From the sequence record PZ026127.1: DNA of 64,000 nt. One strand, given 5' to 3'. Of this stretch, positions 7,138 through 58,141 are shown in pieces. The position numbers and the translations under genes were made by a program. The notes below the pieces were generated by a model, which was given only the letters and a program-made list of their open reading frames with translations, was not told where the DNA came from and searched no databases. Source of the stretch: a phage. The stretch's first letter is position 1. Each line of letters starts with the position of its first letter.

Positions 7138-7416
7138 ATGGACCTAAATTCAAAGATTTTAATTCTAGCGTTCGCTGTGGCTATTTCTTATATTGTTCTT
7201 TCGCCTATCATGGATGATGTGGCTTACAAAAGAGAGATAGAGGTTGTAGCAGCGACGTATAATGCTAATAATAAAGAGTGTCCTAATAAAAACGGGATGG
7301 ATTTAATTAAAGCGCATTATATGCTTTCCATTACCTCGCCTATACAGAGGAATTGGGTTGAATATAATTTTAACGACGTGTTCTATTCTTATTGTCGTAA
7401 GCTTAAAAAGCTATAA
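7138..7416 (+). CDS. Hypothetical membrane protein
   Basis: N-terminal hydrophobic helix; 92 aa. Confidence 0.4.
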   Translation: MDLNSKILILAFAVAISYIVLSPIMDDVAYKREIEVVAATYNANNKECPNKNGMDLIKAHYMLSITSPIQRNWVEYNFNDVFYSYCRKLKKL

Positions 7417-7420
7417 ATAA
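7413..7420 (+). promoter_or_regulatory. Possible late promoter (TATAAATA)
   Basis: Exact TATAAATA in intergenic region. Confidence 0.3.
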
Positions 7421-7508: not shown

Positions 7509-7802
7509 ATGGATATTTTCCGTACAGCGGCTTGTATCCTTATGGCGGGATGTTTAAGCCCTACAGTTTCACTAGCAAATGGTGCCAATGATAAATTGAT
7601 GGATGCATTTGCTAGTAGTGCGATGCCTGTTTATGCGCAAATGAGTAGACCCAGCGTAAAGGCCTCCGAAGACTATTGGGCCTATGTTACGGCTTCCTGG
7701 AAGATTTCAAGTTGTCGGACTATAGAAGCGTGCTCAATTGAAGGTCGGGCCATCGGAGAGCGTTATGTAAAACTAATGAAGGTGGAAGATGAAGTTCAAT
7801 GA
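7509..7802 (+). CDS. Hypothetical lipoprotein/secreted protein
   Basis: N-terminal signal-like region with lipobox-like LMAGC. Confidence 0.4.
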   Translation: MDIFRTAACILMAGCLSPTVSLANGANDKLMDAFASSAMPVYAQMSRPSVKASEDYWAYVTASWKISSCRTIEACSIEGRAIGERYVKLMKVEDEVQ

Positions 7803-17615: not shown

Positions 17616-17789
17616 ATGAGTACCAAAATTGAAGTTGGCCGTCATAAAGGCCGTCTGATTGAACATTCGCTTTACGAATTGTCGGATTCGGGTTCTTTAC
17701 CTGACTTAGAATCCGATTTGATTAAAGCTGCAGCCGATTATATTCATTGGCTTGAAGCTCAACTTCGCTTTTCCGATGGGGCCTTCTGA
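17616..17789 (+). CDS. Hypothetical small protein
   Basis: 57-aa ORF downstream of promoter; TGATG overlap with next gene. Confidence 0.35.
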   Translation: MSTKIEVGRHKGRLIEHSLYELSDSGSLPDLESDLIKAAADYIHWLEAQLRFSDGAF

Positions 17790-18091
17790 TGAATTTATTT
17801 GAATTTGAAGGTAAAACTGTTCGTATTACTGAAGAAGATGTCGACCACTATGTTGACTGGCCTGAATTAAACGGCAATCGCGGCTTTGAATCAGGCGAGC
17901 TTTGTGAAGGCGCCGAAGTTAAAATCCTTAAGGTGGAGATTTCTCCCTGGGGCGACCCTGAAATCATCGGCGTAACTGCTATCGAATTTAATGGTAAGGT
18001 ATACGAATACACTAAAGAAATGTTTGAAGATACTAAAGCTTCATTCTGGTGTTTTTGGACTAACGATGATAATGAATTTGAGGTCGCATGA
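17789..18091 (+). CDS. Hypothetical acidic protein
   Basis: 100-aa ORF. Confidence 0.4.
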   Translation: MNLFEFEGKTVRITEEDVDHYVDWPELNGNRGFESGELCEGAEVKILKVEISPWGDPEIIGVTAIEFNGKVYEYTKEMFEDTKASFWCFWTNDDNEFEVA

Positions 18092-20074: not shown

Positions 20075-20325
20075 GCCTGAAATTACACTCAATGAAAAAT
20101 ATCATTACCCTTAATCTGGATGATGAGCGCCTGATTTTTCTCACCGTCACTGATAAGAATATTGAAATCGCCAACGGCCCGAAAACTTATTGCTGTCCTG
20201 TTAAGAATTGGAAACGCGTAACATTTCTTACTCTGACCGAACGCCTGAAAGATATTAAGTTGGATTTGGATGTCAAAGATGTCCAATACATTAAAAATCT
20301 TATTGGATACAAACTGCTGAGGTAA
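20071..20325 (+). CDS. Hypothetical protein
   Basis: 84-aa ORF. Confidence 0.4.
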   Translation: MSLKLHSMKNIITLNLDDERLIFLTVTDKNIEIANGPKTYCCPVKNWKRVTFLTLTERLKDIKLDLDVKDVQYIKNLIGYKLLR

Positions 20326-20327
20326 CT

Positions 20328-20621
20328 ATGGGTAAAACTATTCGTCGTAAAGAATTGTCTGTAAAAGATTTTTATTATTCCGGACGTCGTAAAGCACCGG
20401 ACGGCGTAAGTCAGGAACTGGTTGAAGAAAATATCTTCCGTTCCGACAAGTGGAAACGTATGCGCGGTGTTGATTCTGAAGTTAAGAACGAAATGAACCG
20501 CCAGCTTCGTAAAGAAGTGAGAAAGCTGAAAAAAGATGTTTACAATGACGATGAACCTGATTACAATACTTCTCATCGAGTTGCAAAACGTAAATCAAAC
20601 GAATGTTATCGTTATAGCTGA
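20328..20621 (+). CDS. Hypothetical basic protein
   Basis: 97-aa, Lys/Arg-rich ORF. Confidence 0.4.
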   Translation: MGKTIRRKELSVKDFYYSGRRKAPDGVSQELVEENIFRSDKWKRMRGVDSEVKNEMNRQLRKEVRKLKKDVYNDDEPDYNTSHRVAKRKSNECYRYS

Positions 20622-44003: not shown

Positions 44004-45032
44004 ATGTCATATGTCGATAGAGAATTTGCTGTACGTGCCTTGAATTACCAACCTAAATTCAGACAAGTAACTGGTAGTGATTTTAAATTAAACTGTCGTT
44101 GTCGTGTATGTGGCGACTCCCTAAAAGATGAGAACAAAGCTCGTTTTTGGGCCTATCCGGCCAATGACGGCTCCGTAATGCTGCACTGTTTTAACTGTGA
44201 CTATTCAGCAGGAATTAAGAAGTATCTATACGAATATGAGCCTGATTTATATCGAGAATATATTCTTGAGAAACATAAAGAGCAATCGTTCGGGAGACAA
44301 GCTGCACCTAAGGTGGAGATATCAGAAAAGATTAAAGCCAAGATGCCTGTCATCGAAAAGCTTAATTTCTGTGAACGTCTGGATAGAATGCCAAAGGACC
44401 ATCCTATTATCAAATATGTGACGTTACGTTGCATTCCTGAAAACAAATGGAACCGGCTGTGGTTTACTAAAGAATGGCCGGCATTGGTGAACTCTGTCAA
44501 TCCAGGGACCTATTCTAAAGAAATGCCTGAGCCTCGTTTGGTTATTCCAATTTTCAATAAGAATAAACAAATTGAAAGTTTTCAGGGTCGAGCCTTACGT
44601 AAAGATGCTCCACAAAAATATATTACAATAAAAGCTCATGACCAAGCTACAAAAATATATGGAATGGATACAGTTGACGAACGTCAGTTGGTGTGGGTAA
44701 TGGAAGGCCCTATTGACTCTTTGTTTGTTCCGAATGCAATAGCAATTACTGGCGGGTCGTTGGACTTGGCTATGGTTCCATGTAAAGAAACTCGTGCCTG
44801 GGTAATGGACAATGAACCCCGCCATCCTGACACAATTAAGCGTATGCAACGATTAGTTGATGCTGGCGAAAGGGTTCTATTCTGGGACAAGGCTCCATGG
44901 CCTTCTAAAGATATAAATGATATGATTATGAAAGATAAAGCTGATATAAATGATGTACTGGCATATATGAAAGCTAATATAGCCCAAGGTTTAATGGCAA
45001 AAATGAGACTTTCAAAATATTCTAAAATTTAG
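44004..45032 (+). CDS. 61: DNA primase gp61
   Basis: 342 aa; strong match to T4 gp61 (zinc ribbon CRCRVCGDS...CFNCDY; EPRLVIPIxN, FQGRALxKDAPQKYITI, GPIDSLF, DNEPRHPDTIKRM, AQGLMAKMRLSKY). Confidence 0.93.
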   Translation: MSYVDREFAVRALNYQPKFRQVTGSDFKLNCRCRVCGDSLKDENKARFWAYPANDGSVMLHCFNCDYSAGIKKYLYEYEPDLYREYILEKHKEQSFGRQAAPKVEISEKIKAKMPVIEKLNFCERLDRMPKDHPIIKYVTLRCIPENKWNRLWFTKEWPALVNSVNPGTYSKEMPEPRLVIPIFNKNKQIESFQGRALRKDAPQKYITIKAHDQATKIYGMDTVDERQLVWVMEGPIDSLFVPNAIAITGGSLDLAMVPCKETRAWVMDNEPRHPDTIKRMQRLVDAGERVLFWDKAPWPSKDINDMIMKDKADINDVLAYMKANIAQGLMAKMRLSKYSKI

Positions 45033-45229
45033 GCAGGAACTCCGCTAAAGAATCCAATTATGCTTAATACGTGTTCCATTGTAACCGCTGGTAAAATTAT
45101 CCCTTGGCTAGCGGCTACAGGGACTACTAGAAGATTCCAAAGGAATACGTCTAGCGCAAGAAAACCTAACATCATTTTCTTGTCTTTCTTTTCGGCCAAT
45201 TTCCAGATTTGGTAAAAAATACTGCCCAT
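45029..45229 (-). CDS. Small hydrophobic membrane protein on minus strand
   Basis: 66 aa; ATG at 45229 preceded on the minus strand by AGGAGG with about 6-nt spacing; two hydrophobic segments; lies in the 61-56 intergenic region. Confidence 0.5.
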   Translation of the reverse strand: MGSIFYQIWKLAEKKDKKMMLGFLALDVFLWNLLVVPVAASQGIILPAVTMEHVLSIIGFFSGVPA

Positions 45230-45320
45230 GTTATCCTCCTGTTAAATTAATATTTATTCGCTTTAATCTAACAGTTTATAATTATCTAACTTACTAATGA
45301 ATTGAAAAGGAAAAAATATA

Positions 45321-45839
45321 ATGGCATACTTTAACGAATGCGCAAACCTGATTGATGGTGTTGATAAAGCTGAGGAAGCTTATTTTAATGCTCTGATTCA
45401 TGAAGATAAAGACCCTCTGCAAGTTATGCTTGATATGCAGAAATCTTTACAGGTTCGTTTGGCTAATGACCGTGAATATTGTTACCATCCGGACAAATTA
45501 GCGACAGCCGGTGATGTTGTTGCTTGGATGCGTGAACAGAAAGATTGTATTGACGATGAATTCCGTGAACTTCTGACTTCCCTCGGTGAAATGTCTAAAG
45601 GTGAGAAAGATGCATCTGCTGTATGGAAAAAATGGAAAGCCCGTTACCCGGAAGCACAAGCCAAACCTATTTCAGAAATGTCTCCTGAAGACCAGCTTGA
45701 AATTAAATTTGAACTCATTGATATTATGCACTTCGTATTCAATATGGCTATTGGCCTGAATATGTCGGCTGAAGAAATGTTTAAACTTTATTATCTGAAG
45801 AATGCTGAAAACTTTGCAAGGCAGGACCGTGGCTATTAA
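45321..45839 (+). CDS. 56: dCTP pyrophosphatase gp56
   Basis: 172 aa; very strong match to T4 gp56 (MAxFNECA, LQVMLDMQ, CYHPDKL, WMREQKDCIDDEFRELLTSLGEM, KWKARY, YYLKNxENFARQDRGY). Confidence 0.93.
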   Translation: MAYFNECANLIDGVDKAEEAYFNALIHEDKDPLQVMLDMQKSLQVRLANDREYCYHPDKLATAGDVVAWMREQKDCIDDEFRELLTSLGEMSKGEKDASAVWKKWKARYPEAQAKPISEMSPEDQLEIKFELIDIMHFVFNMAIGLNMSAEEMFKLYYLKNAENFARQDRGY

Positions 45840-46497
45840 GGCTAAGTTTTATAGAACTTATTTGATAAAAATTAGGACGCCGAAAGGTGTCTTTTGGTAT
45901 GGTGGTAAACATGAAACCTTTATACTAAATCCAAATAAAGATAGATATCCAGGTTCTGGCAAAATCTTATGGAATATGTATAAAAAGTATGGTCTAAAAT
46001 ATAAAATACGTTGGTTTGTAGGCCACCAAAATTTAGAAGAATCTTTTAATCATGAAAGACTTTTAATAGCCAAAATAAGAGAAAAGCATCCTAACGAATG
46101 CTTGAATATATTACCAGGTGGCGCTGGCAGCGAAGGACATAAATGGACTGAAGAACAGTGTATAGAGCACAAGCTTAGATTAAATAAACCTGAAACTAAG
46201 ATTAAAATGAGGAAGGCTCAAGCTATAGCTCAGAATAGGCCTGAACGTAAAGCTCGTCAATCAGAAATAATGAAAGAGTTTTATGAGAATGGTGGGAATA
46301 AATTAATATCTGAAGCCACTTCTAAAGCTCAACGAACTGCTCCTCATTGGCATGAACCATTGAAAAGCGAAATCTATAATATTTGGCTTTCATTAGGTAA
46401 ACCAACTACAGGTCCTGTAGTCAAAGAACTTAAAGGTAAATATGACGTTACCGCAAGTGCTCTCAAAAATTTAATATACTCTTTTAGAGATATATAA
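45802..46497 (+). CDS. Putative free-standing GIY-YIG-type homing endonuclease (Seg-like)
   Basis: N-terminal YRTYLIKIRTPKGVFWYGGKH, LPGGAGS, NUMOD3-like HKWTEEQCIEHKLRLNK; overlaps 3' end of 56; start uncertain (ATG 45802 or GTG 45829). Confidence 0.5.
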   Translation: MLKTLQGRTVAIKAKFYRTYLIKIRTPKGVFWYGGKHETFILNPNKDRYPGSGKILWNMYKKYGLKYKIRWFVGHQNLEESFNHERLLIAKIREKHPNECLNILPGGAGSEGHKWTEEQCIEHKLRLNKPETKIKMRKAQAIAQNRPERKARQSEIMKEFYENGGNKLISEATSKAQRTAPHWHEPLKSEIYNIWLSLGKPTTGPVVKELKGKYDVTASALKNLIYSFRDI

Positions 46498-57940: not shown

Positions 57941-58141
57941 ATGTATGGTACTAATTGGTGCCATACAAAAGGAGACTTTATGAGAAAGTACTGGGTTACG
58001 CTCGTCACCGGTGAATACGGTTATATCTGGACTGATACTAGACCTCAGTTTGCAGAATACGTGACTATTACAGTCGAGACATGGGACGGCGAAGTTTACC
58101 AAACCCGCGGACAAGTCTATAAGGTCGATTCAAGTAACTAA
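57941..58141 (+). CDS. Hypothetical protein
   Basis: 66-aa ORF. Confidence 0.35.
   Translation: MYGTNWCHTKGDFMRKYWVTLVTGEYGYIWTDTRPQFAEYVTITVETWDGEVYQTRGQVYKVDSSN

Follow-up and report, generated by a model that had tools for sequence, protein, structure and literature searches.

A 66-aa open reading frame (ORF) on the minus strand between genes 61 and 56 of a T-even phage is, to judge from its sequence and conservation, a genuine gene for a small membrane protein. Its synteny and shared motif indicate an orthologue of dam.1 of phage T4T that belongs to a sister subfamily. The best explanation overall, which we hold with moderate confidence, is that this dam.1 orthologue encodes a late accessory single-pass membrane protein, which may tune an event in the envelope or in lysis. 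The evidence comes from translation signals kept in place across genera, a late-promoter-like box that persists where the surrounding DNA has diverged, a predicted transmembrane helix with an invariant motif, and a pattern of substitution that points to selection on the protein.

A minus-strand gene between genes 61 and 56

The stretch of DNA that we analysed (hereafter the window) comprises 64,000 nucleotides of phage sequence record PZ026127.1. Across 700 bp around the ORF it shares 94-98% identity with Dhakavirus genomes, among them QL01, WG01 and JS98, and by its sequence the window is Dhakavirus (JS98-like T-even) phage DNA. The ORF lies in the gap between the genes for the primase (gene 61) and the dCTPase (gene 56), and its features are collected in Table 1. 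An earlier note on this DNA had placed the ORF in a 290-bp intergenic region and had credited it with a perfect Shine-Dalgarno (SD) sequence about 6 nt from the ATG; we measured a gap of 288 bp and confirmed the AGGAGG, with a spacer of 5 nt. Read 5' to 3' on the minus strand, the order of elements upstream of the ORF is AATAAATA-TTAATTTAAC-AGGAGG-ATAAC-ATG. The arrangement AGGAGG-N4-9-ATG occurs twice in the 64 kb, once at the endolysin gene e and once at the 66-aa ORF.

Table 1. Coordinates of the 66-aa ORF, its signals and its neighbours in the window.
Feature	Position	Strand	Remarks
Gene 61 (primase)	44004..45032	plus	
ORF of 66 aa	45029..45229	minus	sequence MGSIFYQIWKLAEKKDKKMMLGFLALDVFLWNLLVVPVAASQGIILPAVTMEHVLSIIGFFSGVPA, stop included
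Stop overlap, 66-aa ORF/gene 61	45029..45032	both strands	4 nt; genes convergent, tail to tail
Codons 42-66, C-terminal tail	45032..45106	minus	G43, L46-P47 and E52 conserved; short amphipathic helix
Codons 19-41, predicted transmembrane helix	45107..45175	minus	hydrophobicity scan and AlphaFold2; includes W31-N32 and P37
ATG start codon of 66-aa ORF	45229-45227	minus	direct sequence reading
Shine-Dalgarno AGGAGG	45235..45240	minus	5-nt spacer (ATAAC) to ATG
Late-promoter-like box AATAAATA	45251..45258	minus	T4-type consensus TATAAATA; box end 21 nt upstream of ATG
Gene 56 (dCTPase)	45321..45839	plus	
segF-like homing endonuclease gene	45802..46497		
soc	46532..46765		

Genes on the minus strand are rare here. 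When the 64-kb window was tiled greedily with ORFs no shorter than 45 aa, 117 fell on the plus strand against 5 on the minus strand; of these five, all but the 66-aa ORF lack an SD. One of the four, a 129-aa ORF at 20187..20576, was examined and rejected, as it overlaps plausible plus-strand genes. By tiling and SD check, the 66-aa ORF is the sole credible minus-strand gene in the 64-kb window, in agreement with its earlier description as a lone gene on that strand. No Rfam RNA family was found in the window, and no intrinsic terminator was predicted downstream of the 66-aa ORF.

The gene belongs to a conserved phage family and has a counterpart in T4

The 66-aa gene is already known, with annotations in many T-even genomes and a PHROG family to itself, phrog_2024. 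The window protein matches this profile with an E value of 5.8e-28 (residues 1-64 against profile positions 1-64 of 65), as do all 17 diverse members that we tested, and QL01 and WG01 annotate proteins identical to it as hypothetical. Searches with tblastn recovered 139 phage records for the window protein, at identities down to about 32%, and 698 phage records for the T4-type ORF described below; record names among the T4-type matches also indicate Mosigvirus. In addition to loci from Dhakavirus and T4, we fetched those of Marfa, VR26, Q7622, PM2, CGG4-1, PEi20, Moon and ECML-359, from seven genera other than Dhakavirus, and the genera of the fetched loci are Dhakavirus, Marfavirus, Gaprivervirus, Kanagawavirus, Mosugukvirus, Gelderlandvirus, Moonvirus and Tequatrovirus. 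Every fetched homologous locus is convergent with gene 61, usually with a 4-nt overlap of the two stop codons. Convergence with the gene 61 primase was seen in T4T, Marfa, VR26, Q7622, PM2, CGG4-1, Moon, Bas37 and Bas40, and the identical 4-nt overlap in T4T, Marfa, VR26, Moon, Bas37 and Bas40. By these comparisons, nearly all T4-type phages appear to carry the gene.

In T4 itself, the RefSeq genome (NC_000866) has an unannotated gap of 309 bp from dam to gene 61. This gap holds an ORF of 66 aa (17738..17938 on the plus strand of NC_000866) with the same motif and the same upstream signals, which the T4T record names 'dam.1, hypothetical protein' (ADJ39749.1). T4T Dam.1, together with the rest of PHROG 2024, resembles the window protein in size (61-74 aa), in its place and orientation against the 3' end of gene 61, and in having a late-promoter-like box, an SD and the motif W-N...P...G..(L/I)P...(E/D). 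Their N-terminal cytoplasmic segments differ, and the family falls into two subfamilies with about 20% identity to one another: A, the window type, and B, the T4 type. Gapriverviruses carry A and B in tandem, as VR26 does, and in ECML-359 A survives as a frameshifted remnant beside an intact B copy. The tandem in VR26, together with a decayed A beside an intact B in ECML-359, suggests that the two subfamilies share one job.

More distant relatives are few and small. A profile search of 1.84 billion representative proteins returned 15 clusters at 50% identity, all of 33-69 aa, and a search of 5.8 billion proteins returned 121 at E <= 10 among 90%-identity clusters, none with a Pfam domain. Neither Pfam, NCBIfam, PADLOC and PDB sequences nor the two large profile searches yielded anything except the protein's own small family, and comparison of the AlphaFold2 model with BFVD and the PDB retrieved only family members or noise. 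Two distant members that match phrog_2024 at about E 1e-10, P0074 and P0075, come from uncultured phages that are not T4-like. Their genes are co-directional with their neighbours and close tail-gene operons, with no primase gene adjacent; directly upstream lies an endonuclease VII gene and, before that, a gene for a 94-aa protein with a transmembrane segment and a coiled coil.

A conserved late-promoter-like box precedes the gene

The T4 late promoter TATAAATA has as its core the heptamer ATAAATA, of which the window contains seven copies when both strands are counted (128 kb). The sole minus-strand copy ends at the distance from the ATG of the 66-aa ORF that is given in Table 1. Three other copies stand just upstream of e, 49 and soc, which are transcribed late in T4 and served as positive controls; of the remaining three, one precedes 61.1, one precedes a 53-aa ORF and one lies about 100 nt upstream of a lipoprotein-like ORF. 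The box of the 66-aa gene deviates from TATAAATA at its first base. Gene 49 in the window has the identical AATAAATA variant, and a comparison of T4-like genomes noted poor conservation at the first T of the late box, where A or T is frequent (PMC1524935).

The box keeps its position in 9 of 10 promoter-bearing homologues, in DNA that has otherwise diverged. It reads TATAAATA in Marfa and Q7622, NATAAATA in T4, PM2, PEi20, VR26 gp031 and ECML-359, and TATTAAATA in Moon and CGG4-1, and an SD was found in every homologue examined. No box precedes the second gene of the VR26 tandem, which would be expected were the two genes transcribed together. Upstream of the homologues we found no conserved early sigma-70 promoter; the late-type box alone is conserved. 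These features suggest that the 66-aa gene is probably transcribed late in infection. The earlier note had regarded its orientation as unusual. That description did not hold up: this is the normal orientation of a late gene, and the arrangement is conserved across T-even-type phages, T4 included. A differential RNA-seq study of T4 reports 22 antisense start sites (10.1101/2024.04.04.588121). Our search of the literature on dam.1, phrog_2024, T4 ribosome profiling and late antisense transcription at gene 61 turned up nothing relevant.

The product is predicted to cross the inner membrane once

A hydrophobicity scan of the window protein revealed a strong transmembrane segment at residues 19-41. 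Residues 43-64 are weakly hydrophobic and include a conserved acidic residue, and this second segment is too weak for independent insertion into the membrane. The AlphaFold2 model (pLDDT 74) has three helices (residues 2-11, 14-41 and 51-62), the last two separated by a loop at 42-50. The strong segment at 19-41 in the scan and the helix at 14-41 in the model bear out the proposal, made earlier from the sequence, that the ORF encodes a membrane protein. That proposal had spoken of a double hydrophobic segment, a description that holds in part: the first segment is strongly hydrophobic, the second weakly so.

Conservation is concentrated in and just after the helix. W31 and P37 are invariant across the 17 diverse members, 90% or more of which have N32 (nearly invariant) and P47; also frequent are G43, L46 and an acidic residue at position 52. 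The full motif, W-N-x4-P-x5-G-x2-(L/I)-P-x4-(E/D) after a basic N-terminal segment, is complete in the window protein. Net charge before the transmembrane helix is +2 to +5 in 14 of 17 members, while that of the tail is -2 to 0 in 16 of 17, and no member has a basic C-terminus. The charge pattern and the hydrophobicity together favour a single pass with the N-terminus inside and the C-terminus outside. We thus consider the product most likely to be a single-pass inner-membrane protein of N-in/C-out topology, as modelled here, with a C-terminal tail that probably lies in the periplasm or at the interface; alternatively, the second hydrophobic segment may also cross the membrane, giving a hairpin. 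A conserved Asn in the middle of a transmembrane helix is a classic driver of helix-helix association, and its presence here points to self-association or to the binding of a partner inside the membrane.

A positional orthologue is dispensable in a published transposon screen

The HIDEN-SEQ transposon-insertion screen uses a T4 annotation without the dam.1 ORF (10.1101/2025.11.20.689424). It also covers Bas37, including bas37_0144, a gene of 201 nt that overlaps the primase gene by 4 nt and that we infer, from position and size alone, to be the positional orthologue of the window gene. There, bas37_0144 is classed as non-essential, with 20 of 24 TA sites hit, and does not change significantly in three host comparisons, with log2 fold changes of +0.33, +0.20 and -0.28 (q = 1) (10.1101/2025.11.20.689424). 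By analogy with bas37_0144, the window gene is probably not needed for plaques to form on laboratory E. coli. As no fitness effect appeared on four hosts, any role should be subtle or dependent on conditions.

A possible role in late envelope events

The features above can be assembled into the following proposal. Late in infection, RNA polymerase carrying the late sigma factor gp55 would start at the AATAAATA box and transcribe the 66-aa gene on the strand opposite to that of the surrounding early genes, and the strong AGGAGG site would drive translation. The 66-aa product would then insert into the inner membrane in a single pass, with its lysine-rich N-terminus in the cytoplasm, a transmembrane helix containing the invariant Trp, the nearly invariant Asn and a Pro kink, and an acidic, hydrophobic tail of about 25 residues at the periplasmic face. 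Through its W-N...P motif it may associate in the membrane with itself or with another membrane protein and in this way tune a late envelope event, most plausibly holin-dependent lysis timing or lysis inhibition. This association and tuning form the most speculative step of the proposal, and we put it forward tentatively, as a possibility that falls short of probable. It is more doubtful still that Dam.1 and PHROG 2024 as a whole are late envelope micro-proteins that bind T, RI/RIII or spanins, or that form a small pore of their own.

Comparison with lysis proteins reveals both likeness and difference. Like the holins and antiholins (T and RI of T4, and the pinholin S21), the window protein is small, probably late, predicted to sit in the inner membrane, and endowed with polar residues in its hydrophobic region. 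Sequence matches to holins all fell below significance: P0075 matched the holin family phrog_3427 across 41 residues with an E value of 0.0023, P0072 and P0076 matched the holin family phrog_11161 at E 0.012 and 0.065, and P0070 matched the Pfam family GTA_holin_3TM (PF11351) across 45 residues at E 0.1, its 13.6 bits falling short of the cutoff of 24.8. None of these holin families was matched by the window protein itself, and one UniProt entry of its own family bears the name 'Holin'. In the uncultured phages, the 94-aa protein with a transmembrane segment and a coiled coil, encoded two genes upstream, gave weak Rz-like spanin matches, and we found no outer-membrane spanin beside its gene.

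The differences concern both protein and gene. A highly charged C-terminal tail is typical of holins, whereas the C-terminus of the window protein is hydrophobic and acidic and its basic cluster is N-terminal. In the window its gene is flanked by those for primase and dCTPase; unlike holin genes, it has no endolysin or spanin gene adjoining in T-even phages, and these phages already possess the holin T. T4 t mutants fail to lyse, which argues that a protein of the window type is no self-sufficient holin, and the non-essentiality of Bas37_0144 for plaque formation likewise argues against a role as sole holin.

The late timing inferred for the gene would also suit a membrane protein that serves virion assembly or DNA packaging, say by anchoring an assembly intermediate, and has no part in lysis. 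Endonuclease VII serves DNA packaging in T4, and it is directly after an endonuclease VII gene that the homologues in the two uncultured phages close their tail or structural operons. We nevertheless regard this reading as improbable: the Bas37 positional orthologue is non-essential, with insertion counts near normal, the T-even copies lie far from the morphogenesis genes, and no tie to any structural protein emerged.

The earlier note had proposed a membrane-acting immunity, exclusion or toxin-like peptide, and a superinfection immunity or exclusion protein resembling Imm or Sp, or a type I toxin, would indeed be small, hydrophobic and targeted to the membrane, as the window protein is. Imm and Sp of T4 are, moreover, small non-essential envelope proteins, as the Bas37 positional orthologue is non-essential, and their genes lie in the same early part of the genome; the window gene shares the neighbourhood of sp. 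T4 Imm and Sp are expressed early, and exclusion proteins must act from early infection. Their genes have the early orientation, whereas the window gene lies on the opposite strand behind a conserved late-type promoter element, with no conserved early sigma-70 promoter in its place. Neither sequence nor fold has any detectable similarity to Imm, Sp, defence or toxin families (there is no match to Pfam T4_Spackle, for example), and the family is confined to phage genomes and phage-sized contigs. This poor fit to the box and lack of homology make the immunity, exclusion or toxin reading unlikely, and we retain the late accessory membrane protein as the favoured interpretation.

Substitution patterns point to selection on the protein

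Between genera, the annotated frame has a pS of 0.78, at which synonymous sites are saturated, and a pN of 0.27; for the window against Marfa the values are 0.79 and 0.13. When all six frames were compared, the annotated frame had the highest pS and the lowest pN. The ATG, the SD and the length of the minus-strand ORF are all kept in 11 of 11 homologues from 8 genera. On this comparative evidence, the protein is under purifying selection.

This selection bears on whether the late transcript, and not the protein, might be the functional product. Such a transcript would be antisense to gene 61 and would shut off the primase late in infection, the ORF being incidental. The strictly conserved convergent layout with overlapping stops is what such a role would need, and read-through into gene 61 is plausible given that no intrinsic terminator was predicted after the ORF. 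We consider the idea very unlikely, as it leaves unaccounted for the excess of pS over pN, the conserved residues, the ATG and the SD, as well as the P0074 and P0075 homologues, which have no primase gene beside them. An antisense effect could accompany the protein but, to judge from the sequence comparisons, cannot be the only function.

It is scarcely credible that there is no minus-strand gene and that the region is non-coding or that its true gene is a 51-aa plus-strand ORF (45060..45215), for although the latter is co-oriented with the neighbouring genes and its frame is open for 52-65 codons in 8 of 11 homologues, it was rejected as a shadow frame, with no SD, disruptions in Q7622, CGG4-1 and Moon (three genera) and a pN/pS of 0.52 against 0.34 for the annotated frame, the pattern expected of a shadow frame, whereas the minus-strand ORF has its ATG, SD and length intact throughout the 11.

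Implications for T-even phages

The gene is present in T4 yet absent from the RefSeq T4 annotation, and gene-level analyses that use this annotation therefore omit dam.1, as the T4 table of the transposon screen illustrates. Should the gene prove to be without phenotype, it would be an ordinary accessory gene. Lysis and lysis inhibition in T-even phages retain unexplained steps, and a conserved small membrane protein that is probably made late is a reasonable candidate for them. If the tentative link to lysis is true, contacts made through the Trp, Asn and Pro of the transmembrane helix would adjust lysis timing or lysis inhibition.

A T4 family member absent from the RefSeq annotation

The gap between dam and gene 61 in the RefSeq T4 genome spans 309 bp and has no annotated gene. 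We found that it holds an intact 66-aa member of PHROG family 2024, to which the focal membrane-protein ORF belongs, complete with a Shine-Dalgarno sequence and a GATAAATA box; the T4T record names this gene dam.1. The exact T4 protein is present in a 15-billion-protein collection from Logan only, with no NCBI accession or source name.

Gene content varies beside a conserved neighbor

Comparison of related phages (L002, L004, L008, L010 and L016) revealed that the stretch from the focal gene's promoter to gene 56 is a hotspot of variable content. It is empty in Dhakavirus and Bas40. T4 has dam there, Marfa two unknown genes and Moon three genes, and each of the Kanagawavirus phages Q7622 and PEi20 has a single small gene. 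Whatever the hotspot contains, every phage compared keeps the small PHROG 2024 gene joined to the end of gene 61. In the window, a 231-aa homing-endonuclease-like ORF shares 38 nt with the 3′ end of gene 56, as segF does in T4. QL01 lacks this ORF at the same site despite 98% identical flanking DNA, and the ORF thus appears to be a mobile insertion whose presence differs from one close relative to another.

VR26 (Gaprivervirus) carries both subfamilies of the family gene, A (window type) and B (T4 type), in tandem, with a late-promoter box before the first copy only. In ECML-359 the second, A-type copy no longer has its start, contains a frameshift and a truncation, and carries R in place of W31. 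The tblastn matches in SP18, RZ and TH54 are only partial (~residues 25-66). Together, these sequence comparisons suggest that the two copies are redundant.

In two uncultured phages whose structural modules differ, the tail operon ends with a common block of three genes, in which a 94-aa protein is followed by endonuclease VII and then a PHROG 2024 member. The 94-aa protein has an N-terminal transmembrane segment and a coiled coil; its matches to Rz-like spanins are weak.

Coordinates of features (window positions unless a record or locus is named)
Feature	Position	Strand	Remark
ATAAATA	264, 7412, 18409, 43783, 46493, 57934	+	motif count
ATAAATA, focal ORF	45258	-	motif count
Perfect TATAAATA	7412-7419	+	~100 nt upstream of ORF starting near 7509
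231-aa ORF	45802..46497	+	phrog_314, E 9e-20
53-aa ORF	57980..58141		upstream ATAAATA
T4 family member	NC_000866 17738..17938 (= L010 3239..3439)	+	intact
VR26 tandem	L003 1295..1701
ECML-359	L009 1660..1890
Three-gene block	L013/L017		contig SRR23468712_11944
Three-gene block	L014/L018		contig SRR13090001_30656

ATAAATA sites and candidate late genes

ATAAATA is very rare in the 64-kb window (7 copies, both strands counted). An ORF with its start near 7509 opens with MDIFRTAACILMAGCLSP, which resembles a lipoprotein signal that includes a lipobox (LMAGC); because a perfect TATAAATA also lies upstream, this ORF may encode a late-expressed lipoprotein. Six of the seven ATAAATA copies have a start codon at most 45 nt downstream, and the genes behind them are endolysin e, endonuclease VII (gene 49), 61.1, soc, the 53-aa ORF and the focal ORF. 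Given this rarity and placement, stray late promoters appear to be avoided, and the pattern suggests that 61.1 and the 53-aa ORF have late promoters as well.
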